A program made the position numbers and the translations under genes. The notes beneath the pieces were generated by a model. The model was not told the DNA's origin and made no database searches. It was given only the letters and a program-made list of their open reading frames with translations. Shown here piece by piece: positions 8,311 to 56,224 of a DNA stretch of 64,000 bases (position 1 is the stretch's first letter; every line of letters begins with the position of its first letter). The stretch is from Gammaproteobacteria bacterium (GTDB taxonomy: Bacteria; Pseudomonadota; Gammaproteobacteria; Eutrophobiales; Eutrophobiaceae): positions 64,001 through 128,000 of the forward strand of contig OZ244905.1 of the NCBI GenBank assembly GCA_965221695.1, read 5' to 3'.

Positions 8311-9408
8311 TTGACCATGACCTGGCTTTTTGCCCCTGTCGTCGTATTCTGGTGGCTGTTTTCACTAGCGTTGTTTTTGATCTCATTTCGGAAAAGACCA
8401 CGAAAAACAGGCGCTATCATTGATGTGCAAATTGGCCTTGCAAGCATCGCCATGGCGCTTCTCTTATTACATCCTCCGTTGACTTATGAGTTCGTTTTCA
8501 AGCTGATTGAACCTAAGGAATGTTCACGGGATATTAAGCCCGTTCGGACTGTGTTGTTGTTGCCTGATGGAAAACCAGAACTTTACGAAAGTATTGTCGC
8601 ATTGCCTGACGGCAGTTTTGTTGTCACCGCTGCAACCAGGGGCGAACTTCTCAGTGTCGGTAAAGACGGAACCATCAACATACTGGCGAGTCTGCCGACC
8701 GGCCGTTTTGATCTGCGTACTTTCAATGGTATGTTGGGTGGTATCGTACAAGGTCAGGATAAGGCGCTGTACACTATTGTCCTTGCAACAGATCTACAAA
8801 ACCGGGGTTTATGGCGAGTTGATCAGGCAGGTAACAGCAGTTTGTGGGCCAGGCTACCCATGGATGCGAGTGGAAACGGTTTGACTTTGGATCATCATGG
8901 TAATTTTTATATTGCTGACTCAAGGCAGGGTCTGGTTTGGAAAGTAGAAGCTAACGGAGGACCACCAGTAATATGGTATCAGGGGCCTTTGATCGGGGCC
9001 GGCGCCCGCTCTCTATTGCCGACTGCAAACGGCATCAAATTTACGCAATTAGCCATATTTGTCACCAATACCAAGCATAAAAGGGTTGTTCGTATTGATA
9101 TTCGGGAAGACGGCAGTGCCGGCGAGGCCAGTATTTGGGATGAAGGAATCCCTGCAGACGATTTTGCGATAGATGATCACGGGCGACTGTACCTGACGAC
9201 CCACCCATTTAACACGGTAGTGCAATTGCAGCGAGATAAACCCTGTTTGATCGTCGCTGCTGTTGATAGTGGTATAGCTGGACCTACTGCCGCCGTCATT
9301 GGGAGAGGCTCAGATGATCGCTCTTTGCTATATGTATTGAATGACGGTGGTTATTCTAGGGCCGTCAAGGGTGGCAAACCTTCAATAATCGGGTTGGAAA
9401 TAAATTAA
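8311..9408 (+). CDS. SMP-30/gluconolactonase-like beta-propeller protein with N-terminal membrane anchor
   Basis: Two N-terminal hydrophobic segments; ESI, GNGL, ANGI, ADDFAID propeller motifs. Confidence 0.75.
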   Translation: MTMTWLFAPVVVFWWLFSLALFLISFRKRPRKTGAIIDVQIGLASIAMALLLLHPPLTYEFVFKLIEPKECSRDIKPVRTVLLLPDGKPELYESIVALPDGSFVVTAATRGELLSVGKDGTINILASLPTGRFDLRTFNGMLGGIVQGQDKALYTIVLATDLQNRGLWRVDQAGNSSLWARLPMDASGNGLTLDHHGNFYIADSRQGLVWKVEANGGPPVIWYQGPLIGAGARSLLPTANGIKFTQLAIFVTNTKHKRVVRIDIREDGSAGEASIWDEGIPADDFAIDDHGRLYLTTHPFNTVVQLQRDKPCLIVAAVDSGIAGPTAAVIGRGSDDRSLLYVLNDGGYSRAVKGGKPSIIGLEIN

Positions 9409-9409
9409 T

Positions 9410-9500
9410 GAGAACTCAGAACAAGCCCGTCCAGGACTTGTTCTGAGCGCATAGAATAAAAATGCGATTTTGTTTTACTTGGAACCTCTGACTTTAATCC
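9410..9500 (-). mobile_element. Degenerate, internally deleted copy of the 151-bp MITE
   Basis: Reverse-complement hairpin 5 (CTCAGAACAAG...CTTGTTCTGAG), hairpin 4 remnant and GGAACCTCTGAC arm; hairpins 2-3 missing. Confidence 0.7.
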
Positions 9501-9504
9501 GCAT

Positions 9505-11913
9505 TTAAAAGTTAAAGCGTATACTGCCTCCATATTGTCGGTCGCGCGCCCAATAATTTACCCGCTGGCTGACACCGGGTAGAAATATATCATTGAAATG
9601 AAACTCATTCGTGAGGTTTGTGCCGAAAACAGCGAATTCCCACTTGCCATTATCTGTGGTCAGCCCAGCGCGCGCATCCAGCAAGCCCAGCGCATCTTCT
9701 TTTGACAAAGGATTGTTATCGGCGTTGTGGTAGATTTCATCACGCCAAGACCATGTCACCCTGATATCGATGTTGCCGTAAGCTGTCGGCTGTGTATAAC
9801 TACCAGAGATATGCGCGGTCCATTCCGGTGTTTTGCGCAACAGGGCGCCGTCTGCCACGCCGCTGGTTGCGGCTACCAGCGGATCAATGGATTCAATTTT
9901 GGCGTCGGTATAACCTAGACTGGAAGACAGGGTAAATTGAGGATGAGGGATGACAGTTAATTCCGCTTCACCGCCCCATATTTCTGCTGTTGCGGCATTC
10001 AGCAGATACACAGAAAAACCACCTGTAGATGTTGCCTGCACGGTCTGAATCTGCAGGTCTTCATAATCATTATAATACAAAGATGCATTTAGACGCGCTT
10101 GCCGGTTCATAAACTCAGACTTGAAACCGACTTCGTAGGTGGTAACCAGTTCCGGCTCAACTGACGTTGCTATGGCTTCGGGAGCGCCACCGCGACCATT
10201 GAAAGTGCCGCTTCGGAAACCTTCGCTGAATGATACATACAATAACAGGTCGTCGGACGGTTGGAATTCAATACCGACTTTCGGTGAAAAATCAGTCCAG
10301 TTGTCGCTGAAAGTCTGCGGCGGCACAGAGAAAAATGGAAATTTCAGGACAGCTGAGGAATCTGGTAACAATTGGGACCGGTCTAAATCCTTACTCTCAT
10401 GTGTGAGACGAAAACCGGCAGTTACACTCCATTGCTCGGACAAGCGGTAGGTGCCTTGACTATAAAAAGCGATATTTTCAACATCAATTTGATTATATGT
10501 CACTATATTGTTATCTAGAATCAGGTTGAACGGGTTACCGGCGCCACCAGCACAGATGTTGGGAGGAAAAGTGCCGGGACAGACTGAACCGGGCGCTACG
10601 GGAAAAACCGGGGCAGGAAACGCTTCCAAAGCCTGCACCAGTCCGGGGAGAATTTGCACAATGTTATTGCTGGTTACTTTCTCAGTAAAGTAATATACAC
10701 CAGTGACCCAAGTCAGCTTTTCGAACTCGCCATTCAGTTGAATTTCCTGGCTGAACTGCCACTGGTCGAGTTGTTCATCTGTGGAAGCCACCTCTAGAAA
10801 ATACCCGTCGTTATCATCAATAAAATGCATATCCATATCACGATAGGCAGTAATTGACTTGATAGCGCCCCAGCTAAAAGCGTCCCAGTCCAGCATTAGA
10901 GATACACCCCATATATCCGCATTATCTCTGCTTGGGCCATTTTTTGATGATTCAGCGCTGTCTTCAGGGAAAAGTGTATTTGGGGTGACAAATGCTGGTG
11001 GTGAGCCAGGCGGGCCACCCGGTATAAAAGAAGGTGGCCCGGGGATAATGCCGAACAGCGCCAGTCCGCTCTGTAGAGCCATCAGACCAGCTCCGGTAAA
11101 TGCTGACGCGTTGCTGGGTGTGCTGTTCTGGTTCTGGTGGTAATAGTCAGCGGTCAGGTTTGCCTCGAATTCATCTGTGAATTGCCATCTAAAAGCGCCG
11201 CGCAGAGTGAGGTTATCATCATTGCCGAAATCGATCTCTGGTTCAATGTTTGAGGTTCCGTATCCGTCCCGGTCCTTGATATTAAACGAGAGGCGGGCGG
11301 CCGCGGTATCACTGATTGCCAGGTTAGCGCTGCCACTGCCTTCCAACCAGTCATCATTGCCGGCTTTGAATTCGAGGAACCCCGTGTTGGAATTAAAAAG
11401 GGGACGTGTTGAAGTCACATTAATAGCGCCACCGATGGTGTTACGCCCGAACAGGGTTCCTTGCGGCCCGCGCAATATTTCAACCTGCTCAATATCAAGC
11501 AGATTTAAAACGCCACCTACGGCGCGGCCAAGATATACGCCATCAATATATGTGCCTACCCCGGGGTCAGCGGTTGGTATGAAATCGAATTGACCGATGC
11601 CGCGAATGAATACCTGTGCATTGTTTGCGGTACCGCCGCTGCGGGAACCGCCCTGAAACCAGAGATTAGGGGTTATTCGATCTATTGACGAAAGATCTTC
11701 AAAAGCAGCAGCCTTGATATCGGTTGCAGAAATAGCCGTCACGGCGACAGGAGTAGCTTGCAGGCTTTCAGCACGTTTACGCGCAGTTACCGTGATCTCT
11801 TCAAGCGTAGCAGTTTGAGCAAAGGCAGTAGGCAAGCTGTAACTAGCTGCAAAAACGCATGCTCCCAAAATGGATACAAGTTGTCGTTGGACTTTTATGA
11901 AACAACCAGGCAT
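9505..11913 (-). CDS. TonB-dependent receptor
   Basis: Signal peptide, LEEITVTARKR, plug motif EILRGPQGTLFGRNTIGGAIN, C-terminal Phe (RFNF). Confidence 0.95.
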   Translation of the reverse strand: MPGCFIKVQRQLVSILGACVFAASYSLPTAFAQTATLEEITVTARKRAESLQATPVAVTAISATDIKAAAFEDLSSIDRITPNLWFQGGSRSGGTANNAQVFIRGIGQFDFIPTADPGVGTYIDGVYLGRAVGGVLNLLDIEQVEILRGPQGTLFGRNTIGGAINVTSTRPLFNSNTGFLEFKAGNDDWLEGSGSANLAISDTAAARLSFNIKDRDGYGTSNIEPEIDFGNDDNLTLRGAFRWQFTDEFEANLTADYYHQNQNSTPSNASAFTGAGLMALQSGLALFGIIPGPPSFIPGGPPGSPPAFVTPNTLFPEDSAESSKNGPSRDNADIWGVSLMLDWDAFSWGAIKSITAYRDMDMHFIDDNDGYFLEVASTDEQLDQWQFSQEIQLNGEFEKLTWVTGVYYFTEKVTSNNIVQILPGLVQALEAFPAPVFPVAPGSVCPGTFPPNICAGGAGNPFNLILDNNIVTYNQIDVENIAFYSQGTYRLSEQWSVTAGFRLTHESKDLDRSQLLPDSSAVLKFPFFSVPPQTFSDNWTDFSPKVGIEFQPSDDLLLYVSFSEGFRSGTFNGRGGAPEAIATSVEPELVTTYEVGFKSEFMNRQARLNASLYYNDYEDLQIQTVQATSTGGFSVYLLNAATAEIWGGEAELTVIPHPQFTLSSSLGYTDAKIESIDPLVAATSGVADGALLRKTPEWTAHISGSYTQPTAYGNIDIRVTWSWRDEIYHNADNNPLSKEDALGLLDARAGLTTDNGKWEFAVFGTNLTNEFHFNDIFLPGVSQRVNYWARDRQYGGSIRFNF

Positions 11914-11944
11914 AGGTTTTCTCCAATCAGATAGACCGTATTAA

Positions 11945-12099
11945 GAAAGCTCTTAACAAGCCCATCCAGGACTTGGAAGAGCACGTAAAACAATAAAGCT
12001 TTTTTTGTTTTACTCATAAAATCAATGATATAAAGTCATTGATTACGACGGTACATCCCTGCGTCGTTGAACCCTCTAAGACTTAATCTCAGAGGGATC
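11945..12099 (-). mobile_element. Degenerate full-length MITE copy (reverse orientation)
   Basis: All five hairpins recognisable in reverse complement; flanked by TTAA at 11941-11944 and 12100-12103. Confidence 0.8.
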
Positions 12100-12212
12100 T
12101 TAAATCTATTAAAACTCTTGTATAAATGTGTTTGATATGTAAATATTACAACATTGTATGATAATAATATCCTACATTATAACCTAATTTTATCTTAAAC
12201 GAGGAGTGTGAG

Positions 12213-12524
12213 ATGGTTTGGTATCATTTCATTGCCTATTTTTTTGCCGGCGTTTTTCTTACTAACGGCATCCCCCATTATGTGTTGGGTTCATGCGGCA
12301 GAAAGTTCCCGACGCCATTCGCCAATCCACCCGGAAAAGGCGAGTCATCGGCGATGGCAAACGCGATGTGGGGCCTGGCAAATTTTGCCACGGGGTATCT
12401 TTTACTCCAGGTTGGCCACTTTTCCAGCGGGTTTACCGGCGCTATGCTGGCATTTGTCCTAGGAATATTCTTAATGAGTATTATGCTGGCTAAACACTTC
12501 AGTAGCATATATTCGGTTGACTGA
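12213..12524 (+). CDS. Small three-TM membrane protein of unknown function
   Basis: 103 aa, hydrophobic, NGIPH...FPTPFANPPG motif; RBS GAGGAG upstream. Confidence 0.75.
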   Translation: MVWYHFIAYFFAGVFLTNGIPHYVLGSCGRKFPTPFANPPGKGESSAMANAMWGLANFATGYLLLQVGHFSSGFTGAMLAFVLGIFLMSIMLAKHFSSIYSVD

Positions 12525-23104: not shown

Positions 23105-23123
23105 ACCTCTGATTAAGTCAGAG
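23105..23123. repeat. Degenerate TIR-only palindrome of the MITE
   Basis: ACCTCTGATTAAGTCAGAG. Confidence 0.6.
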
Positions 23124-23190
23124 CTTACCTGGCAAATAATATATTCCTCTCATAAGCTCCAAGAATATATGCGTATTTTATAAGGTTAAG

Positions 23191-23341
23191 GGAAACTCCG
23201 ATTAGGTCAGAGTTTCCTGCGATACAGGGATGTATCGCCAAATTCAATGACGATAAGTCATTGAATTTGAGAGCAAAACAAAAATCGCATTTTTGTTGTG
23301 CGTGCTCTGACAAGTCCAGGATGGACTTGTTCAGAGCTTCC
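23191..23341 (+). mobile_element. 151-bp MITE, variant copy
   Basis: GGAAACTCCGA...TCAGAGCTTCC flanked by TAAG/TAAG; five hairpins with compensatory changes relative to the other copies. Confidence 0.88.
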
Positions 23342-23403: not shown

Positions 23404-24348
23404 ATGACACGATTTGATAACGTGCTCGGACAAATACACAATATCGATATCAAGCTTTTACGTATTTTTCATACGATCGTAAAATGTGGAGGCTTTTCGC
23501 TTGCACAGGCCCAACTCAACCTCAGCCAGTCGGCTATTAGCACGTATATGTCGCAACTTGAAATCCGGTTGGGAATGCGGCTTTGCGAGCGTGGTCATGG
23601 TGTATTCAAATTGACCGATGAAGGTCGCGCAGTATTAGTGGCAACCGAAAAGTTATTTTCAGCTCTGGAGAGTTTCCAGAACGAGGTGACCGAATCACAG
23701 AATAAATTACTGGGTGAATTGCGTATCGGATTTATCGATAACAGCGTGACTCATCCTGATGGACGCATCTGCAAAGCAATAAGAAACTTTATCGAACGTG
23801 CGCCGGACGCACATATCAAGGTCTACATAGGTGGCGCTATTGAACTTGAAGAACAGGTTATGGATGGTAGCTTGCAACTCGCAATCGGATTGTTCCACCA
23901 TCGTTTGCCAAGCCTGGAATATAGTTTTCTTTTTGAAGAAGAACATCTGCTCTATTGCGGCTACGAGCATCCTTTTTATTCCTGTAGTGATTCCGAATTA
24001 ACGCCAGACATTATTGCCAACGCAAATTATGTTAGTTGGGATTACGTGGAGTCTCTACCGGGATGGGAACCACCGTTTTCTTTTCATGACGTCGCTTCTT
24101 CTCCGTATATTGAAGGTATTGCGTTTTTGATCCTCTCGGGTAGGTATGTGGCTTTCCTGCCTACTCACTATGCAGGTTTCTGGACGGAGAAAAACCAGAT
24201 GCGTCCAATTTTGCCCGAGAAGACCAGGCGGACGACACCCTTCCACCTCATTACCAATAAATCTACCAGCAAGTCTCAATTATGCCGAACTTTTCTGGAA
24301 GCGTTGGGGAATCTTTCCAGTATTCCCGGGGACCATAAAGTTCAGTAA
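23404..24348 (+). CDS. LysR family transcriptional regulator
   Basis: DIKLLRIF..IVKCGGFSLAQAQLNLSQSAIS HTH; LTDEG; substrate-binding domain. Confidence 0.93.
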   Translation: MTRFDNVLGQIHNIDIKLLRIFHTIVKCGGFSLAQAQLNLSQSAISTYMSQLEIRLGMRLCERGHGVFKLTDEGRAVLVATEKLFSALESFQNEVTESQNKLLGELRIGFIDNSVTHPDGRICKAIRNFIERAPDAHIKVYIGGAIELEEQVMDGSLQLAIGLFHHRLPSLEYSFLFEEEHLLYCGYEHPFYSCSDSELTPDIIANANYVSWDYVESLPGWEPPFSFHDVASSPYIEGIAFLILSGRYVAFLPTHYAGFWTEKNQMRPILPEKTRRTTPFHLITNKSTSKSQLCRTFLEALGNLSSIPGDHKVQ

Positions 24349-28701: not shown

Positions 28702-29865
28702 ATGGCCGCTGATGCCGACCTGAAGAACAGGGTCATAGTTGCCGCCAGCATCCTGATGGTGGGCATAGCAGGCAATGCTTTTACACCGTTTGCTCCTTCA
28801 ATCATCGGCGCCCTGGTCGATTATCTGGAATTCTCACTGGAAGCTGCCGGCAGGCTGACTTCGTTGGAGTTTGGCGCCACTTCATTAGGTACAGTTGTGT
28901 CCACGTTGTGCCTGCACCGTCCCGGATTAAATCTTAAACGGATTGCTTTTTTCTGTTTAGTCGCGCTCATCGTCTGTAACCTGTTAACTGTCTTCAGCTA
29001 CGCAAATATGGCTTTACTTGCCACTTGTCGTTTCGTATCGGGATTTGCTGCCGGTATTACCTGGTGCGCTGCCGCTGTCACTGTCACCAGGATAAAGGAT
29101 GTGGAACGCACCTCCGCCTTGCTTTATGGCTCGCCTTATTTCATGGGAGCCATGGGATTATCTTTCTTGCCTCTGATTTATCCGTACTATGGCGTCTCCG
29201 GCGCTTATTTCACGATTATCTTCATCTGCTCGCTTGCCGTACCTGTCCTGTTATTGTATTTCCCTGCAGGCGCCCATCCACAAGCAGCCGGTAACGCAGC
29301 AAATAAAAGTTTTTCGAGCCAGGAAATCTCATGGCTTGGACTTGGCATCCTGTTGCTGGCGTTATTCATCAATTATGCCGCAAATTCCGGCATCTGGTCT
29401 TATTTTGAACGACTGGGCGTTTCCTATGGACACACAGCTAAAACTGTAGGGCCTGTCGTGGGAGCAAGCCAACTGTTAGCGTTGGTTGGCGTATTTTGTG
29501 CGGCAGTACTCGGCGGGCGTGTTGGTGAAATTAAACCAATTCTCATCGGCACATTGTTGATAACGATGAGCACGCTTTTACTGTTATTCTCATCATCATT
29601 AACAATGTTTTTCTGTGCTATGGCCATTTTCAACTTTTCGATCACCTTTCTTACGCCTTATTACTTTGTGCTGCTGGGTCGTTTGACGCCTTCTGGCCGT
29701 GGGGTGCTCTGGGGAAACCTGGTTTTATGGTTGGGTTTCTCTTCCGGGCCAGCGCTGGTATCACTCGTGATCAAGAATGGCAATTTTGATTTGTCCATTA
29801 TCCTGACAATAGTTGGTTTTATCATCAGCGCGTTATTGATCCTGGCATTTACAGTCATAGATTAA
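28702..29865 (+). CDS. MFS transporter
   Basis: About 12 hydrophobic segments, WSYFERLG motif. Confidence 0.88.
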   Translation: MAADADLKNRVIVAASILMVGIAGNAFTPFAPSIIGALVDYLEFSLEAAGRLTSLEFGATSLGTVVSTLCLHRPGLNLKRIAFFCLVALIVCNLLTVFSYANMALLATCRFVSGFAAGITWCAAAVTVTRIKDVERTSALLYGSPYFMGAMGLSFLPLIYPYYGVSGAYFTIIFICSLAVPVLLLYFPAGAHPQAAGNAANKSFSSQEISWLGLGILLLALFINYAANSGIWSYFERLGVSYGHTAKTVGPVVGASQLLALVGVFCAAVLGGRVGEIKPILIGTLLITMSTLLLLFSSSLTMFFCAMAIFNFSITFLTPYYFVLLGRLTPSGRGVLWGNLVLWLGFSSGPALVSLVIKNGNFDLSIILTIVGFIISALLILAFTVID

Positions 29866-29912
29866 CGCAATCCGGGCCAGCCTTTATGATTTATGGAGCC
29901 TCTGAGACTTAA

Positions 29913-30063
29913 GGAACCTCTGATTAAGTCAGAGGTTCCTACGATACAAGGATGTATCGTCAATATCAATGACTGTAAGGCATTGATATTGTGAGGAAAA
30001 CAAAAATCGCATTTTTGTTTTCCGTACTCTGACAAGTCCAGGATGGACTTGTTCAGAGTTTCC
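29913..30063 (+). mobile_element. 151-bp MITE nested in a TIR-only palindrome
   Basis: TTAA-GGAACCTCTGA...TCAGAGTTTCC-TTAA; outer flanks GGAGCCTCTGAGAC and TCAGAGATTCT. Confidence 0.9.
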
Positions 30064-30078
30064 TTAATCAGAGATTCT

Positions 30079-31170
30079 TTATGTTAATCCTGCTATATCT
30101 TCAGGAATTACGCCAAGTTTACAAATCACTTTATCATCCAGGCAGACTGTTGGACGCATCAGTAATATATCCCAGTGAATATGGGATACGACAGGTTCAA
30201 GTTCGGAACCATGCCACATGCGCGTCAACAGACTGCTATCACCTATCCCGCAACAAACCGTGCCCCGTAATTTTTCAAATTCCTGGTGCTGGGTCAGCAT
30301 CGCTCTTGAATTGGTACCGAGGTTGAGGTGAACAGGACCATAACGCGCAGAATCATCGGGTTGAGCATTCAGCCAATTACTGAGACGATCTCGGAATAAT
30401 GCCTCGCCTTTGATATCTACAATCTTTCCATTGTCAAACGTTAATAATACAGGCGAGTTCGGTGTTTCATGGTCGTAGGCCGGCTCATACAAGAGAAATC
30501 CGTCAACAGCCATAACGCCTTTGCCCCTGCCTTTGGGTATAACGATCCCGGGAGCTGCCGGTGGCAACGACGCCCAGGTCCCCGTCCATTTCTTCAGGTC
30601 AGGATTCCATAAGAATTCATCCGATGAAATACCTTGTAATCCTTGTATGTCGAGTTCAAAATCCGTGCCTTCTTCCGATGTCATACGCAATGTTTCGGCC
30701 TTGCTAAACAAATCAGCGATATTCCAGGCTTCCTTGCGCAATGCGTGAATGTCTGCGTTCAGCATCGTCCGTATCAGTGTGTCCTCAAGATGGTGGCCGC
30801 CGGGACCATCACCCGGCGAGATAATCCGTGCGCCCCGCTCGACTGCTTGCGCCATGAACTCTGCATACCCCACTGCAAGGTCGACTATCAAGTCTGCTTC
30901 ACGGGCGGCTGCCACAACCATCGGGTTCCATTCATACCCGGGTTGTAATGACGGTGGAGGCGGCATCGCATTCTCGGAAACCGAGACCTGTGCTCCCAAA
31001 GTCATAGCCATACCCATGAACAGGGACACGACATGATGGGGTGTGCGCGAATCTGCTATGATCAATACCTTGGCGCCTGCTTGAAGGTTACACATGTCTC
31101 GGTAGATCTTATCGACTACCACGACAAATTCGGGTTTCAAGCCGGCGCTGACATCTGTCGTCTCAGCCAT
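30079..31170 (-). CDS. Peptidase M29-fold protein, NicX (2,5-dihydroxypyridine dioxygenase)-like
   Basis: KVLIIADSRT, EGTDFELDI, HLNLGTN, HWD; clear paralogue of 31671-32750. Confidence 0.7.
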   Translation of the reverse strand: MAETTDVSAGLKPEFVVVVDKIYRDMCNLQAGAKVLIIADSRTPHHVVSLFMGMAMTLGAQVSVSENAMPPPPSLQPGYEWNPMVVAAAREADLIVDLAVGYAEFMAQAVERGARIISPGDGPGGHHLEDTLIRTMLNADIHALRKEAWNIADLFSKAETLRMTSEEGTDFELDIQGLQGISSDEFLWNPDLKKWTGTWASLPPAAPGIVIPKGRGKGVMAVDGFLLYEPAYDHETPNSPVLLTFDNGKIVDIKGEALFRDRLSNWLNAQPDDSARYGPVHLNLGTNSRAMLTQHQEFEKLRGTVCCGIGDSSLLTRMWHGSELEPVVSHIHWDILLMRPTVCLDDKVICKLGVIPEDIAGLT

Positions 31171-31240: not shown

Positions 31241-31267
31241 AGAACATCTGATTAAGTCAGAGGTTCC
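31241..31267. repeat. 27-bp TIR-only mini element
   Basis: TAAA-AGAACATCTGATTAAGTCAGAGGTTCC-TAAA. Confidence 0.75.
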
Positions 31268-31344: not shown

Positions 31345-31495
31345 AGAACCTCTGATTAAGTCAGAGGTTCCTACGATACAAGGATGTATCGTCAATATCA
31401 ATGACTGTAAGGCATTGATATTGTGAGAAAAACAAAAATCGCATATTTGTTTTCCGTACTCTGACAAGTCCAGGATGGACTTGTTCAGAGTTTCC
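31345..31495 (+). mobile_element. 151-bp MITE
   Basis: Near-identical to 29913-30063 and 56029-56179; flanked by TTAG/TTAG. Confidence 0.9.
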
Positions 31496-31670: not shown

Positions 31671-32750
31671 ATGGCAGCTATTACCCCAGATAGTTCATCC
31701 AGGCTCAAACCGGATTTTATTGCTGTAGTCGACCTGATATACAAAGATTTTTGCAACTTGCAACCTGAACACAAAGTGTTGATTATCAGCGATGCCCGCA
31801 CACCGGACTATGTTGTTGCAACATTTCAGGGTCTGGCGCAAACACTGGGCGCAGAGGCCATCCGGATTGAATGTCGTATTCCCAAGGGAGGCGCAACGTA
31901 TCAACCCGGCTCACATTGGCCTTCCATGCTTGCGGCAGCAGCCTTGGAAGCAGACTTGATTATTGACATGGCGGTGGGTTATGCAGACTTCATAGTGGAA
32001 GCAATCAATAATGGGGCTCGCATCCTGTGTCCTGGAGATGGTATAGGCGGACCATTTATGGATGACGTTTTGATTAGAACCGTTCTGCATACCGATATCC
32101 ATGCGCTTAGTCGCCGCGCAGATAATATTGCAGAACGCTTTACCGAAGCAAAGCGTTGCACCGTACTTACCGGAGCTGATGAGTTCAGCCTTGACCTGTC
32201 GGGTCTTGAGGGCGCTGCTGGAGACGGTTTTCTCTGGGACCGGGACAAACAAGATTGGAAAACGCCATGGGCTTTTTTGCCTCCTGCACAACCAGGGGCG
32301 CTGGTTCCTATGGGGCGCGGTCATGGTACGATCAATGTCGACGGCACATTGCTGTATCATCCCGACTATCATGAAAAACCGGATATGCCTCTCCGTCTCA
32401 CCTTTGCTGCAGGACGCCTGGTAGACATAGGCGGCGATCCTGTTCTCGGCTCGCGTTTGGAACGCTGGCTGGAGGAGTTGGGTGATGACGGCGCCTACAA
32501 TGGTCCGGTACATTTTAATATTGGCATCAATCCCAACGCCCTGCTAACCCAGAGCCAGGAATGGGAACGAGTCTACGGTTCCATCACCTGTGGCATGGGC
32601 GATTTAAGCATGCTAAGTAGGATTGGAGATATAGATTTGGACCTGGCATTGAGCAAGTCTTCCGTACATTGGGACTGGACAGTCCTGCATCCAAAAATCC
32701 TGCTTGACGACTGTGTATTTGCGGAAAATGGAAGAATATTTTGCGAATGA
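31671..32750 (+). CDS. Peptidase M29-fold protein, NicX-like (paralogue 2)
   Basis: KVLIISDART, HFNIGINP, HWDW; paralogue of 30079-31170. Confidence 0.7.
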   Translation: MAAITPDSSSRLKPDFIAVVDLIYKDFCNLQPEHKVLIISDARTPDYVVATFQGLAQTLGAEAIRIECRIPKGGATYQPGSHWPSMLAAAALEADLIIDMAVGYADFIVEAINNGARILCPGDGIGGPFMDDVLIRTVLHTDIHALSRRADNIAERFTEAKRCTVLTGADEFSLDLSGLEGAAGDGFLWDRDKQDWKTPWAFLPPAQPGALVPMGRGHGTINVDGTLLYHPDYHEKPDMPLRLTFAAGRLVDIGGDPVLGSRLERWLEELGDDGAYNGPVHFNIGINPNALLTQSQEWERVYGSITCGMGDLSMLSRIGDIDLDLALSKSSVHWDWTVLHPKILLDDCVFAENGRIFCE

Positions 32751-41131: not shown

Positions 41132-41684
41132 ACTGAATCCGTGTTACGCATTGCAGGGCAGTGATGGACAGACGCTGGTTTTGCAGACGGATCGCCTGGC
41201 GCTGCAGGCGGTTAACAATGTTCGCAAGCTGCGCTTGCAAGCCCGGCCGGACACGGAGATAAACCCGGCGCCGCTTGAAGCGTTACTGGGCATGGCATTA
41301 CCGCAAAACCCGCGGGAAAAGGTCAACCATGAGCCGGCAGCCTACTGGCTGGCCCCCAATGACTGGCTGCTGCTCGACCCGGCGCCGGCCGGCGGCAATA
41401 TCAGCAATGTATTGCGGGAAGCAGCCGGTGGCGCCACGTGCGTTGTCACCGATGTGAGTGATGCCTGGAGCATCATAGAGATTTCCGGCGCGGATGCCGC
41501 GGCAAAATTGGCGGAAGGCTGCTCGGTAGACCTCGATGACGATGCATTCCCGGTTGGCCGGTATGCTTTGACCCGGTTGCAGCGCCTATCGGTAATCATA
41601 CACAGACTGGACGACAGGTCAAAATTCCACCTCCTGGTTGACCGCAACCTGGCGCGTTTTCTCTGGGATTGGTTACGCATGTGA
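41124..41684 (+). CDS. soxG: Sarcosine oxidase subunit gamma
   Basis: WLAPNDWL, DVSD, GCSVDL...F, A.FLW.WL; ATG 41124 overlaps soxA end. Confidence 0.88.
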   Translation: MSELNPCYALQGSDGQTLVLQTDRLALQAVNNVRKLRLQARPDTEINPAPLEALLGMALPQNPREKVNHEPAAYWLAPNDWLLLDPAPAGGNISNVLREAAGGATCVVTDVSDAWSIIEISGADAAAKLAEGCSVDLDDDAFPVGRYALTRLQRLSVIIHRLDDRSKFHLLVDRNLARFLWDWLRM

Positions 41685-43960
41685 ACCGGGACAACGCACC
41701 GGTTTTCAAGGACCTGGTCCTGGTTGGTGGAGGCCACGCCCATGTCACGGTATTGAAAAAGTTTGCAATGAAACCGGTGCCCGGGGTGCGCATTACCCTG
41801 GTTTGCCGGGACTTGCAGGCGCCTTACTCCGGCATGTTGCCGGGATATATAGCCGGGCATTACCTATTTGACGACGCGCATATCGACCTGGTTCCGCTGT
41901 GCCGATTTGCCCGCGCCCGGTTTTTCCACGATGAAGTCATCGGTCTGGATACGGATAACAGGAAGCTGATCTGCCGCAGCCGCCCGCACCTGGGTTATGA
42001 CATTTTGTCGATTAACGTCGGCTCAGCGCCCGATATCGCCGCAGTCCCCGGCGCTGACGGCAAGGTTATTCCCGTAAAACCCATTGATGGTTTCGTCGGT
42101 AACTGGCGCAAACTGTGTACGCGGATGTTGCAACGTCAAAATGGCGCGCGCATCGGTATCGTCGGCGCCGGGGCGGGCGGCGTCGAACTGGCGCTTGCAG
42201 TTCAATACCGGCTGAAAGCATTGCTGACCGGGAAATGGCCGGATAATACAAGTCCTGAATTTCACTTGTTTACCGATGCCGGCGAGGTCCTTACAACACA
42301 TAACCGCAATGTGCGCGCCAAGTTCCGGCGCGTGCTTAACGAGCGGAACATTCACGTACATACAGGGCACGAGGTGACCGAAGTCAGGGCCGGTGTGCTG
42401 CAATGTGCAAACGGCGCTACTTTTCAACTGGATGAGATCCTGTGGGTGACCAGGGCCCGCGCCCAGGACTGGCCGGGGCAGGCCGGCTTGGATGTTGATG
42501 AACAGGGCTTTATCAAAGTCAACAATACTCTCGAGTCCGTCTCGCATCCCGGCATCTTTGCGGCCGGCGATATCGCGCATATGATTAACCATCCCCGGCC
42601 CAAGTCCGGTGTATTTGCCGTGCGCCAGGGAGCGCCGCTGTCACTGAATCTCCGCAACAGGTTGTTAAATCGCTCCCTCAAACCCTATTTTCCCCAGAGA
42701 GAGTTTCTGAGCCTGATTTCCACGGGTGATCAGTATGCCATCGCCTCACGCTCCTGGTGGGCGCTGGAAGGGCGCTGGGTGTGGCGCTGGAAGGACTGGA
42801 TTGATCGCCGCTTCATGTGCAAGTACAACCGGCTTCCGGAAATGAAGGAGCCGGCACGGCGGGATATTCCCCGCGGCGTAGCCGATAAGGATGCGATCAG
42901 GGAGATATCCGCCATTGCGATGCGCTGTGGCGGGTGTGGCGCCAAGGTGGGCGCGACAGTGCTTGAAAATGCATTGGCTGGCCTTGAACCGATCTCCCGG
43001 GACGATGTGCTTATCGGGTTGCACGAACCTGATGACGCCGCCGTGGCGAGTGTGCCGGCAGGCAAGGTAATAGTGCATACGGTCGATGCCTTCCGTTCAT
43101 TTATCGATGATCCGTACATCTTCGGACAAGTGGCGGCCAATCATGCGCTGAGCGATTTATTTGCGATGGGCGCACAGCCGCAAACGGCGCTGGCAATCGT
43201 GACCGTTCCCTACGCGGACGAAAAGAAGCTTGAAGAGCTGCTGTCGCACCTGCTGCAAGGCGCTCTCAAGGCGCTGAACGGGGCTGGCGCGGCGCTGGTA
43301 GGCGGGCATACCTCCGAAGGCGAGGAACTGTCCCTGGGATTCGCCGTGAACGGGTTGGTTGATCGGGAGCAGATCCTGCGCAAACGCGGCCTGCGTGCCG
43401 GCGACAGAATCGTGCTGACCAAGCCCATTGGCACCGGGACACTGTTTGCCGCCGATATGCGGCACAAGGCTAAAGGCGCTTGGATTACGGCCGCGCTGGA
43501 TTGTATGCTGCAATCAAACCGGGAAGCTGCCAAGCGCCTGTTTGCCCATGGCGCCGCGGCCTGTACGGACGTCACCGGCTTCGGCCTGTTGGGACACCTG
43601 GTGGAAATGATCAAGCCATCTGGTGTCGATGTCGAGATTGACCTGGGCGCGATTCCGTGTCTTGATGGCGCAGAAGAGACGATTGCAGCCGGCATTTTCA
43701 GTTCCCTGCAGCCCCAGAACCTGCGACTGCGCCGGGCGATACGTGACGCTGAGAACGTATCAAAAGATACTCGCTACCCGTTGATATTTGACCCGCAAAC
43801 ATCCGGCGGACTGCTTGCCGGCGTTCCCGCAGAACAGGCCGAAGCCTGTGTTACCGCGCTGCGTGAATTGGGCTATGCCCAAACTGCAATTATCGGCAGG
43901 GTATTGCCTGAGAGTAATAGGCTGGAACCGGTTAGGCTTTTAAAAGCACAGTCTGAGTAA
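41681..43960 (+). CDS. selD: Selenide,water dikinase fused to an N-terminal FAD-dependent oxidoreductase
   Basis: N-term GGGHAH, YSGMLPG, GAGAGG, FAAGD, KSGVFAVRQG; C-term MRCGGCGAKVG, DDAA, VGGHT, TDVTGFGLLGHL, DPQTSGGLL. Confidence 0.93.
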   Translation: MNRDNAPVFKDLVLVGGGHAHVTVLKKFAMKPVPGVRITLVCRDLQAPYSGMLPGYIAGHYLFDDAHIDLVPLCRFARARFFHDEVIGLDTDNRKLICRSRPHLGYDILSINVGSAPDIAAVPGADGKVIPVKPIDGFVGNWRKLCTRMLQRQNGARIGIVGAGAGGVELALAVQYRLKALLTGKWPDNTSPEFHLFTDAGEVLTTHNRNVRAKFRRVLNERNIHVHTGHEVTEVRAGVLQCANGATFQLDEILWVTRARAQDWPGQAGLDVDEQGFIKVNNTLESVSHPGIFAAGDIAHMINHPRPKSGVFAVRQGAPLSLNLRNRLLNRSLKPYFPQREFLSLISTGDQYAIASRSWWALEGRWVWRWKDWIDRRFMCKYNRLPEMKEPARRDIPRGVADKDAIREISAIAMRCGGCGAKVGATVLENALAGLEPISRDDVLIGLHEPDDAAVASVPAGKVIVHTVDAFRSFIDDPYIFGQVAANHALSDLFAMGAQPQTALAIVTVPYADEKKLEELLSHLLQGALKALNGAGAALVGGHTSEGEELSLGFAVNGLVDREQILRKRGLRAGDRIVLTKPIGTGTLFAADMRHKAKGAWITAALDCMLQSNREAAKRLFAHGAAACTDVTGFGLLGHLVEMIKPSGVDVEIDLGAIPCLDGAEETIAAGIFSSLQPQNLRLRRAIRDAENVSKDTRYPLIFDPQTSGGLLAGVPAEQAEACVTALRELGYAQTAIIGRVLPESNRLEPVRLLKAQSE

Positions 43961-46999: not shown

Positions 47000-48469
47000 A
47001 TGCGTGGTAAAAAACAACAGTTGAGACGCCTGCCATCCGTGGATCGCGTGCTGCGGGAAGCGTCTGATTTGGTCGAGCGTTGGGGACATGAGCGGGTGGC
47101 TGCTGCGATACGCAATACGCTAGAGCAGGTGCGCGCAAACATGGAAGAATTCGCTGCTCTCGACAAGTCAGCGCTATTGGAGCAAGTCGTTTCCATACTG
47201 GCGTGCAGGCTGGAACAGGAGTCCGCGGGCAGCCTGGTCAGTGTGTTCAACCTGACCGGCACCGTCCTGCATACCAACCTGGGCCGCGCGGTACTGCCGC
47301 GCGCGGCGCTGGACAACGCGCTGGCCTTAGCCCAGACACCGGTAAACCTGGAATTTGACCTGGAGAGCGGCACGCGCGGAGATCGCGATGAGCATATCGA
47401 ACCACTGATCTGCGAACTCTGCGGAGTGGAAGCGGCAACCGTGGTGAACAACAATGCCGCCGCAGTATTACTGGTATTGAATACTTTGGCAAAAGGCCGG
47501 GAGGTTCCGGTCTCACGCGGCGAACTGGTCGAGATTGGCGGTTCTTTTCGCATCCCGGATATCATGCAGAGTTCAGGCTGTGCGCTGGTTGAGGTCGGTA
47601 CGACCAACCGTACCCATTTGCAGGACTACCACAATGCGATCAATGACAGGACGGCGTTGTTGTTAAAAGTTCATGCCAGTAACTATCAGATCCGCGGGTT
47701 TACCCATAGTGTTCCCGAGAAAGAGTTGGCTCAACTGGCCCACCAGCGCGGGTTGCCGCTGGTTGTCGACCTGGGTAGCGGTAATCTGATCGACTTTGCC
47801 GCATTCAACCTGCCTGATGAGCCTACGGTCGCGCAAGCGCTGAAGAGTGGCGCCGATATTGTAACCTTCAGTGGAGACAAGCTGTTGGGCGGTCCCCAAT
47901 GCGGCATAATCGCCGGCGAACACACATTGATTGCCAGGATGAAGAACAACCCGCTGAAACGCGCGTTACGGGTTGACAAGATAACCCTGGCTGTCCTGTC
48001 AGAGGTGTTGAGACTCTATCAAAACCCCGCGCGGCTTGCACAAGATCTGCCGGCTCTGGCCGCGCTGACACGTCCACCGGATGCTATCCGTGCCCAGGCT
48101 GAGCGGATTGCCCCTGCGCTCGCGGTCGCGCTGGCGCCGCATTATCAAGTCGCGGTCTGCGAATGTCACAGCCAGGTCGGCAGCGGCGCGCTGCCGATTG
48201 ATACACTGGCAAGTTACGGGTTAAGGATCAGCGCGGTGGAAGAGTCGGATGAAGCAATCAGACTGCTGGCGGCATCCATGCGCCGGCTGCCGACACCGGT
48301 CATAGGTCGGATTAACCAAGGCGCTTATTTCCTGGATCTGCGCTGCCTGGATCGGGAGGAAGATTTTATTTCCCAGTTACGGAGTACTGGCCTCGCGGAT
48401 CATTTTCCGGAACATGCGCACGCCGATGATCTTGAGCATCAGCTTTTGGAAAAGGGACGGGGGCGTTGA
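47000..48469 (+). CDS. selA: L-seryl-tRNA(Sec) selenium transferase
   Basis: RRLPSVD, NLTGTVLHTNLGRA, VNNNAAA, SRGELVEIGGSFRIP, FSGDKLLGGPQ (PLP lysine). Confidence 0.96.
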   Translation: MRGKKQQLRRLPSVDRVLREASDLVERWGHERVAAAIRNTLEQVRANMEEFAALDKSALLEQVVSILACRLEQESAGSLVSVFNLTGTVLHTNLGRAVLPRAALDNALALAQTPVNLEFDLESGTRGDRDEHIEPLICELCGVEAATVVNNNAAAVLLVLNTLAKGREVPVSRGELVEIGGSFRIPDIMQSSGCALVEVGTTNRTHLQDYHNAINDRTALLLKVHASNYQIRGFTHSVPEKELAQLAHQRGLPLVVDLGSGNLIDFAAFNLPDEPTVAQALKSGADIVTFSGDKLLGGPQCGIIAGEHTLIARMKNNPLKRALRVDKITLAVLSEVLRLYQNPARLAQDLPALAALTRPPDAIRAQAERIAPALAVALAPHYQVAVCECHSQVGSGALPIDTLASYGLRISAVEESDEAIRLLAASMRRLPTPVIGRINQGAYFLDLRCLDREEDFISQLRSTGLADHFPEHAHADDLEHQLLEKGRGR

Positions 48470-52011: not shown

Positions 52012-52115
52012 ATCGTCCCCCGTATGTTAATACTGCGATATACAAAAACTGGCATTAATCAGTGTAGAATAACTCACTATAGAAATTATACATAAAATTA
52101 TCAATAATTAATTAA

Positions 52116-52144
52116 GGAATCTCTGACTTAATCTCAGAGGTTCC
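52116..52144. repeat. 29-bp TIR-only mini element
   Basis: TTAA-GGAATCTCTGACTTAATCTCAGAGGTTCC-TTAA. Confidence 0.8.
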
Positions 52145-52203
52145 TTAACAAGACTGACGCTGATATTGATAGCCATCCATAGCGCTGCGCGAGGAGACAT
52201 AAA

Positions 52204-55993: not shown

Positions 55994-56028
55994 GCTTGCA
56001 TCCCCTTGAATTCCGGTATAATCGTTAA

Positions 56029-56179
56029 GGAACCTCTGATTAAGTCAGAGGTTCCTACGATACAAGGATGTATCGGCAATATCAATGACTGTAAGGCATT
56101 GATATTGTGAGGAAAACAAAAATCGCATTTTTGTTTTCCGTACTCTGACAAGTCCAGGATGGACTTGTTCAGAGTTTCC
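56029..56179 (+). mobile_element. 151-bp MITE
   Basis: TTAA-GGAACCTCTGA...TCAGAGTTTCC-TTAA; near-identical to 29913-30063. Confidence 0.9.
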
Positions 56180-56224
56180 TTAATAATATCATAAATAATT
56201 TAAGGGGAAGGGCAGTCCTGGGAT

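Follow-up and report, generated by a model that had tools for sequence, protein, structure and literature searches.

Candidate CsrA-type loops in the covarying hairpin module of a miniature transposon from uncultured Gammaproteobacteria

Here we describe a family of transposable elements of the miniature inverted-repeat type (MITEs) that recurs in a 64,000-nucleotide stretch of DNA from a Gammaproteobacteria bacterium of the Eutrophobiaceae (assembly GCA_965221695.1, contig OZ244905.1, positions 64,001 to 128,000), which we refer to as the window and whose own numbering we use throughout. The element is a non-autonomous transposon with 11-nt terminal inverted repeats (TIRs) and a 4-bp target-site duplication (TSD), and between its ends it carries an internal module, hairpins 2 to 5, in which the stems change by compensation and defined loop bases are fixed. 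Two hairpins of this module, 2 and 5, fit the published CsrA/Rsm consensus. CsrA/RsmA is plausibly the most likely reader of the module, and predicted CsrA binding may be its relevant property, an explanation that we advance tentatively and to which we give slightly less than even credence. Should it hold, what is new is a MITE that would affect mRNAs through a candidate regulator-binding module. Its TIRs, its TSD, its five covarying hairpins and its subfamilies with swapped termini define the element as a new repeat family.

Copies beyond the window were collected by a genome scan anchored on hairpin 3 (18 specified bases) that listed 72 loci, numbered here with the prefix L; all counts are lower bounds, and because hairpin 3 served as the anchor its own conservation cannot be judged. 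At least 50 of these loci carry the element, the other 22 being chance matches in unrelated taxa. Among the matches listed, the carriers are metagenome-assembled genomes (MAGs) of uncultured Gammaproteobacteria, with at least 19 loci on contigs of a single MAG whose copies are about 99% identical to those in the window, and with more distant versions in Sedimenticola MAGs and in one Chromatiaceae MAG. None of the listed loci overlaps the window outside the element (no alignment exceeds 220 nt), so the genome to which the window belongs is not among the 72, and the element found no match in plasmid and phage collections.

The ends of the element were defined by comparing 41 copies, one of which (L049) had its right end taken from a neighbouring copy. 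They read GGAACCTCTGA ... TCAGAG(T/C)TTCC, that is, 11-nt TIRs of the form GGAAMCTCTGA. The flanking 4-mers are identical in 30 of the 41 copies and agree at three or more positions in 36, whereas re-pairing left and right flanks in 2,000 permutations gave 5.1 identical pairs on average and never more than 12. The duplicated 4-mers are A/T-rich with a central TA (TTAA in 12 copies, CTAA in 4, CTTA in 3, TAAA in 3, and others that include TTAG and CTAG), and this 4-bp duplication displaced a 2-bp TA duplication as the candidate TSD. In the reference copy the TSD is TTAA, at 29909-29912 and 30064-30067. No transposase was found among the 48 open reading frames (ORFs) of the window or the 93 ORFs that flank copies elsewhere, in an analysis that included no search aimed at a parent element; the element is therefore non-autonomous, a true MITE, as a preliminary description of this DNA had already called it before the TIRs and the TSD were added as evidence. 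The reference copy holds no small ORF longer than six codons.

The TSD also allows a comparison with known mobile repeats. It is shared in type with insertion sequences of the IS5 family and their MITE derivatives, which were compared by this feature alone and likewise have an A/T-rich 4-bp duplication with a central TA (here TTAA, CTAA, TTAG and CTAG). The IS5 family duplicates YTAR, and Correia elements have a TA duplication. An IS200/IS605-type or RAYT-type hairpin transposon was ruled out by the 4-bp duplication and the TIRs. Repetitive extragenic palindromes and their composites (REP, BIME and REPIN) resemble the MITE in that their palindromes lie between genes, form arrays and number hundreds of copies; they are short, GC-rich, imperfect palindromes without TIRs and target duplications, and REPs are moved by RAYT (Y1) transposases. 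In the MITE, by contrast, TIRs are present and a TSD is demonstrated, and most of its stem sequence is rich in A/T.

At the RNA level, the + strand of the reference copy folds into five consecutive near-perfect hairpins (minimum free energy -77.4 kcal/mol, z = -10.1), in which AGGA at 29949-29952 is predicted as a tetraloop on an 8-bp stem and the loop closing a 15-bp stem holds another GGA. Covariation supports these five consecutive hairpins: in an alignment of 42 full-length copies, 91.5% paired under this structure, 32 of 62 pairs have changed on both sides, compared with 14.9 ± 2.0 in shuffles (none of 500 reaches 32) and 11-17 in slid controls.

The loop bases behave differently from the stems. 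The GGA of hairpin 2 is present in all 54 anchored copies and the 8-mer CANGGANG in 48 of them, all six misses being Sedimenticola loci, and 40 copies out of 42 keep the GGA of hairpin 5. It is missing from L016 and L063, which are orthologous to each other and located between dnaG and rpoD in two Sedimenticola MAGs; they lost it in different ways (GAA and AGA), and both kept the GGA of hairpin 2. In a comparison of position classes over 34 main-family rows, whose cells are not phylogenetically independent and whose ratios are descriptive, the 12 positions specified by the CsrA consensus hold 4 non-consensus cells in all, compared with 32 expected from the rate elsewhere, and the non-consensus cells per position number 7.3 at the three N positions of the consensus, 2.4 at 102 stem positions and 3.4 at 21 other unpaired positions. 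A single site accounts for all four changes at specified positions, and aligning this site as N would be just as good. Taken as a stand-in for changes that followed insertion, rare variants number 1 at the specified positions compared with 6.7 expected. Among the unpaired positions of the element, conservation is highest at the specified ones, and the N positions are the most variable of all.

The consensus obtained for CsrA by systematic evolution of ligands by exponential enrichment (SELEX) is RUACARGGAUGU, with GGA preferred in a hairpin loop, as the preliminary description had stated (PMC4347634), and that given for CsrA/Rsm is A/U-CANGGANG-U/A (PMC6849547). The word ATACARGGATGT occurs exactly four times in the window, once per intact copy, always in hairpin 2 and always on the + strand, as ATACAAGGATGT at 29944, 31376 and 56060 and as ATACAGGGATGT at 23222; these positions, with GGA in the loop, are those first described. 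The reference motif (29944-29955) matches the SELEX consensus at 12 of 12 positions, as does hairpin 2 in the main family. Up to one mismatch, the window holds 4 matches compared with 0.53 expected, a number that none of 100 shuffles reaches, although all four lie in copies of one repeat and so amount to one independent event; by our own arithmetic, assuming uniform base composition, about 0.03 exact matches would be expected over the two strands of 64 kb. In hairpin 5 the motif is C-C-A-GGA-U-G or CANGGANG, and in the reference copy this hairpin bears, as noticed earlier, CAGGATG (30039-30045) with its GGA (30041-30043) in the loop, within CCAGGATGG at 30038-30046 on the 15-bp stem. Taken alone, CANGGANG is common (45 in the window compared with 36 ± 6 expected for this 8-mer), so it is not the 8-mer that carries the signal but the full 12/12 match, together with the fact that two such sites occur as a pair, sit in loops and are conserved. 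The single position that varies among the window copies had been equated with the R of the consensus, which is right for the window; across the wider set all four bases (A, G, U and C) occur there, and the position is an N.

More distant copies have replaced much of the element around these loops. In the copies at L002, L047, L069, L070 and L007 and in those of Sedimenticola, hairpins 2 and 5 are built on entirely other stems and keep GGA in both loops; hairpin 2, for example, reads GCGGTGCA-TGGA-TGCACCGC in L002 and TTGGCACA-GGGA-TGTGCCAA in L069. Those in L002, L047 and Sedimenticola also have different termini (CAGGCTGTCGAAAAA / CAGGATGTTGAAAAA), with a 4-bp duplication alike (CTAA, TTAA) and an unchanged inner module. 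The module is thus more conserved than the ends that move it.

The layout of the module recalls small RNAs (sRNAs) that sequester CsrA. In those of the CsrB/RsmY/RsmZ type (Rfam clan CL00106) GGA is displayed in hairpin loops, as it is here, and the RsmW model, like hairpins 2 to 5, consists of four hairpins, of which the first and the last show GGA in their loops. RsmW itself is an RNA of about 120 nt from a 3' untranslated region that binds RsmA with a dissociation constant of 11.5 nM, and seven GGA motifs are reported for it, compared with the two GGA loops of the MITE (PMC4950607). Unlike RsmW-type sRNAs, the MITE is a mobile element in many copies, with TIRs and a TSD; it lies in both orientations and showed no promoter or terminator of its own in two copies scanned. 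The alignment of the L047 copy with the Rfam RsmW model covers the model's full 124 positions and scores 34.9 bits against a cut-off of 52 (E = 0.007 in the 11-kb search, 1.6e-4 on the region alone). Under permissive Rfam settings 20 other loci gave no Csr/Rsm match, the window copy matched RsmV over 19 nt at 12 bits, and the remaining matches (STnc250 at 22.5 bits, microRNA models) are weak and were regarded as chance. A sub-threshold match in one copy points to an Rsm-sRNA-like architecture of the module and not to family membership.

MITEs alter transcription, termination and RNase processing of neighbouring genes. Under our proposal, a transposon would have captured or evolved an RsmW-like, predicted CsrA-binding module and would carry it around the genome. 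A transcript of the GGA strand would show C-A-(N)-GGA-N-G in the loops of hairpins 2 and 5 and would be bound by a CsrA dimer, which would then be tethered near the ribosome-binding site of the downstream gene, or CsrA would be titrated; copies in the opposite orientation would be inert for CsrA. The element spreads by transposition, and any regulatory effect would be a by-product or an exaptation at particular loci. A sense-strand insertion would wire a gene or operon into the Csr/Rsm regulon, many transcribed copies together could form a dispersed CsrA sponge, and both regulon membership and the level of free CsrA would then evolve by transposition; we hold such a role in regulon wiring or as a sponge to be doubtful and, on balance, quite unlikely. 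Judged by position, some copies are predicted to be transcribed on the GGA strand: L033, which is separated from rlmE and ftsH by gaps of -5 and 15 nt, lies in sense inside an operon, as does L067. Others, L009 and L052, would by the same token be transcribed on the opposite strand.

A single indirect hint of csrA in the hosts comes from a Sedimenticolaceae symbiont, in which csrA is listed as the most highly transcribed gene (PMC13137333). A short CsrA protein motif, written as a regular expression, gave no match in six-frame translations of the window and the 72 listed loci, a result that is uninformative. We found no publication linking MITEs to CsrA/RsmA in a literature mostly without subscription journals, where searches on CsrA yielded just the Rfam 12.0 database paper, and a term search of a 2024 review of prokaryotic MITE functions gave no instance of CsrA, Hfq or 'RNA-binding' (PMC10969869).

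Several observations weigh against a CsrA-binding role, beginning with the orientation of the copies, which was determined from the nearest ORFs on each side (75 of 93 locus ORFs confirmed by Pfam) after dropping the orthologous duplicates L063 and L064. Neighbouring genes lie on the GGA strand in 41 cases and on the opposite strand in 59 (p = 0.089), and tandem contexts are sense in 5 cases and antisense in 14 (p = 0.064), or 3 and 10 with Pfam-validated ORFs alone (p = 0.09). Antisense copies sit inside operons, namely between hydantoinase A and B genes (L009), between birA and coaX (L052) and between dnaG and rpoD (L016/L063). Departures from pairing are G-U in 22 pairs and A-C in 22, which gives no strand signal, the raw excess of G-U cells stemming from predicted loop-closing pairs, and the reverse strand folds equally well or slightly better (z = -11.8). 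The element has two GGA loops and no more, 91 nt apart. Other parts of it are conserved as well, with 0, 1 and 1 changes in 34 rows at the three positions of the hairpin-4 CGC loop and two linkers that are also nearly invariant. The whole window gave no Rfam match at gathering score, and the RsmW match lies below its cut-off and was seen in one of 27 copies of the element (26 from the loci, plus the window's reference copy). The two copies scanned yielded no terminator-like site, no U-tract terminator and just weak promoter matches (9/12). The sampling itself, anchored on hairpin 3 and drawn from 72 listed loci, belongs here too, as does the expectation that master-copy selection in a MITE serves transposition over host regulation. 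The preliminary description, which first read the element as a CsrA module, is supported in its MITE identity, its consensus fit and the conservation of the specified positions, and it gains no support from a sense-strand excess (41 versus 59), a G-U/A-C asymmetry or a conservation unique to the GGA loops; the comparison of loops that it proposed shows the specified positions to be the best conserved and the CGC loop of hairpin 4 to be nearly invariant too.

Element-level selection more naturally keeps features of transposition, so a reader at the DNA level stays a serious rival. The MITE would then be purely selfish, its hairpins and loop bases recognized as DNA by the transposase or by a host DNA-bending or hairpin-binding factor, and its likeness to CsrA sites incidental. 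This is possible, if unlikely. It accords with the presence of TIRs and TSD, with an orientation to genes that is near random or slightly reversed, with the lack of wobble asymmetry, with the conservation of several loops besides those bearing GGA and with the equal folding of both strands. GGA words, moreover, occur at the very termini, as AAGGAA in the main family and, in L002, L047 and Sedimenticola, as CAGGATG when the right end is read on the opposite strand, and template switching can keep the arms of palindromes complementary without selection on RNA. A selfish origin fits less well with the solo hairpin-1 elements, which have 4-bp duplications of their own and no module, and which, if insertions and not deletions, would mean that insertion can do without the module. 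The module is also kept by subfamilies whose TIRs differ and whose transposase specificity is therefore probably different, and a DNA site would not be expected to agree with an independent SELEX consensus at 12 of 12 positions and to vary precisely where that consensus has N.

Two further explanations also take the hairpins as RNA and differ in what would read them. The element could be an orientation-independent structural repeat like REP/BIME or ERIC/Correia, acting within mRNAs as a 3'-end stabilizer, processing site or transcriptional insulator between genes whose loops are read by an RNase or another RNA-binding protein, which we judge improbable. The hairpins are indeed very stable on both strands, stop codons lie close to many copies (within 60 nt, 22 gene ends are antisense and 14 sense), 14 copies lie between convergent genes, and copies inside operons occur in both orientations. 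There is also precedent in Correia elements with RNase III and in ERIC with RNase E (PMC10969869). Correia elements of Neisseria resemble the MITE in being small, TIR-bounded and non-coding, with many intergenic copies co-transcribed with their neighbours, and they affect mRNAs post-transcriptionally through RNase III cleavage at paired TIRs (PMC10969869), but they share no sequence similarity with it, form one long TIR stem instead of five hairpins and have no GGA loops. ERIC/IRU and YPAL of enterobacteria and Yersinia are likewise MITE-like repeats, of 127-168 nt, inside transcription units, ERIC with an orientation-dependent effect at the mRNA level via an RNase E site (PMC10969869); unlike the MITE, they occur in other hosts, lack similarity to it and have no reported motif that binds a global RNA-binding regulator. 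A structural role leaves the fixation of C-A-N-GGA-N-G on one strand without explanation, and no terminator-like sites were predicted in the two copies scanned. Alternatively, the reverse strand might be the functional one, its C-N-UCC-N-UG loops, which resemble an anti-Shine-Dalgarno sequence, pairing with ribosome-binding sites or with GGA-bearing RNAs. This strand folds slightly better, and the modest excess in its favour (59 versus 41 neighbours, 14 versus 5 tandem contexts) would suit it, but chance is enough to account for that excess (p = 0.06-0.09), the analysis turned up no known family or precedent, and Rfam gave no match on that strand; we consider this very improbable.

The copies of the window and the layout of the reference element are listed in Table 1.

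Table 1. Copies of the MITE family in the window and hairpins of the reference copy.
Feature	Position	Strand	Description
Reference MITE copy, 151 nt	29913..30063	+	Ends: TIR GGAACCTCTGA to TCAGAGTTTCC
Hairpin 1	29913..29939	+	Left TIR and inverted internal TIR copy (GGAACCTCTGA / TCAGAGGTTCC); loop TTAAG, variable
Hairpin 2	29941..29960	+	8-bp stem, AGGA loop; GGA 29950-29952
Hairpin 3	29961..29991	+	Anchor of the genome scan
Hairpin 4	29995..30023	+	13-bp A/T-rich stem; CGC loop (AAATCGCATTT), nearly invariant
Hairpin 5	30026..30058	+	TIR-like outer stem CTCTGA/TCAGAG; inner stem carries CCAGGATGG
Copy 2	23191..23341	+	About 87% identical; TSD TAAG
Copy 3	31345..31495	+	TSD TTAG
Copy 4	56029..56179	+	TSD TTAA
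Degenerate copy	~11936..12107	-	77% identical; GGA kept in hairpins 2 and 5
Partial copy	9406..9481	-	Hairpin 1 right arm joined directly to hairpins 4 and 5; without hairpins 2 and 3
Solo hairpin 1 mini-element	52116..52144		29 nt, two TIRs back to back; TTAA at 52112-52115 and 52145-52148
Second solo hairpin 1	31241..31267		TAAA on each side

The window holds four intact copies, one degenerate, one partial and two solo forms. A repeat search returned the intact ones as direct + strand repeats at about 23186, 29908, 31340 and 56024, 80-100% identical to one another. The degenerate copy near 12 kb keeps GCAGGGATGT and TGGATG, as first described, and the hairpin-5 loop of the partial copy, which lies between convergent genes, reads CCTGGACGG. 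The solo forms arose by deletion between the two TCAGAG..TTCC direct repeats or else are minimal elements that move on their own; a further two-TIR mini-element stands at 23105-23126. The TTAA at which the reference copy is inserted belongs to the loop of a solo hairpin 1 that is older and degenerate (GGAGCCTCTGAGAC / TCAGAGATTC; 29900-29912 and 30064-30076), so that the family is here nested within itself.

The neighbours of the reference copy are convergent, a major facilitator superfamily gene at 28702-29865 (+) and an ORF at 30079-31170 (-). Copy 2 lies in the divergent region between a gene for a TonB-dependent receptor (TBDR; start 22985, -) and a LysR gene (+), and copy 4 fills most of the 231-nt divergent region between a TauD-family gene (start 55993, -) and a gene for a serine hydrolase with a beta-lactamase fold (start 56225, +), with a TATAAT at 56017-56022 just upstream of its left end. 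The hairpin-5 end of the degenerate copy is about 26 nt upstream of a TBDR start at 11913 on the same strand. Measured by longest ORF, the gap from copy end to same-strand gene is 26-31 nt for the TBDR, the LysR gene and the serine hydrolase, although the Pfam helix-turn-helix domain of LysR begins at residue 24 of that ORF and an in-frame ATG at 23404 would make its gap about 60 nt. For copy 3 and the ORF at 31671-32750 the gap is 161 nt by longest ORF and about 175 nt from the end of the copy. With copies 26-31 or 161 nt upstream of genes, and with the TATAAT before copy 4, these copies probably lie in leader sequence. Distances of about 30-175 nt had been given earlier. The label 'NicX-like' for 31671-32750 finds no support in Pfam or NCBIfam, which gave no match for the MITE-adjacent ORFs 30079-31170 (-), 31671-32750 (+) and 12213-12524 (+).

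Weak signals of other kinds are present in and around the copies. A sigma-70-like pair, TTGATA-17 nt-TATCGT (9/12), lies inside the element at 29969-29941 and 56085-56057 (-) and points out through hairpin 1, and the right junction of copy 4, at 56160-56187 (+), creates TGGACT-16 nt-AATAAT. A site for integration host factor in hairpin 3, seen by eye, fits one strand of one subfamily and was rejected, as was a GacA/UvrY box, of which the TGTAAG half-site alone is present and differs between subfamilies.

Some copies have themselves become targets of insertion. A GC-rich palindromic repeat (GTCCCGTAC...GATACGGGA, single or doubled and REP/REPIN-like) lies inside the loop of hairpin 4 or 5 in L013 (1040-1112), L046 (1042-1112), L001 (about 1041-1089) and, over about 25 nt inside hairpin 5, L031 and L066, so that hairpin loops seem to be its target. 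In the Chromatiaceae MAG, a different insertion, about 200 nt long, interrupts the element at L007 (780-1000, -) between hairpins 3 and 4; this insertion has CAGTGCTGTCCC termini and an apparent 9-bp duplication (ATTGAATAT). Elsewhere in the window, in the region of 41669-43960 and 47000-48469, an ORF fuses a pyridine-nucleotide-disulphide oxidoreductase domain to AIRS/AIRS_C (SelD-like), and a gene for the selenocysteine synthase SelA lies about 3 kb from this fusion.

Whatever the part played by CsrA, the repeat family is useful for annotating these uncultured genomes. If CsrA does bind, the MITE would offer a concrete route for the quick rewiring of a post-transcriptional regulon, and binding would explain the constraint on its internal module. 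Such a system, if true, would be a bacterial, post-transcriptional counterpart of the eukaryotic transposons that spread transcription-factor sites.

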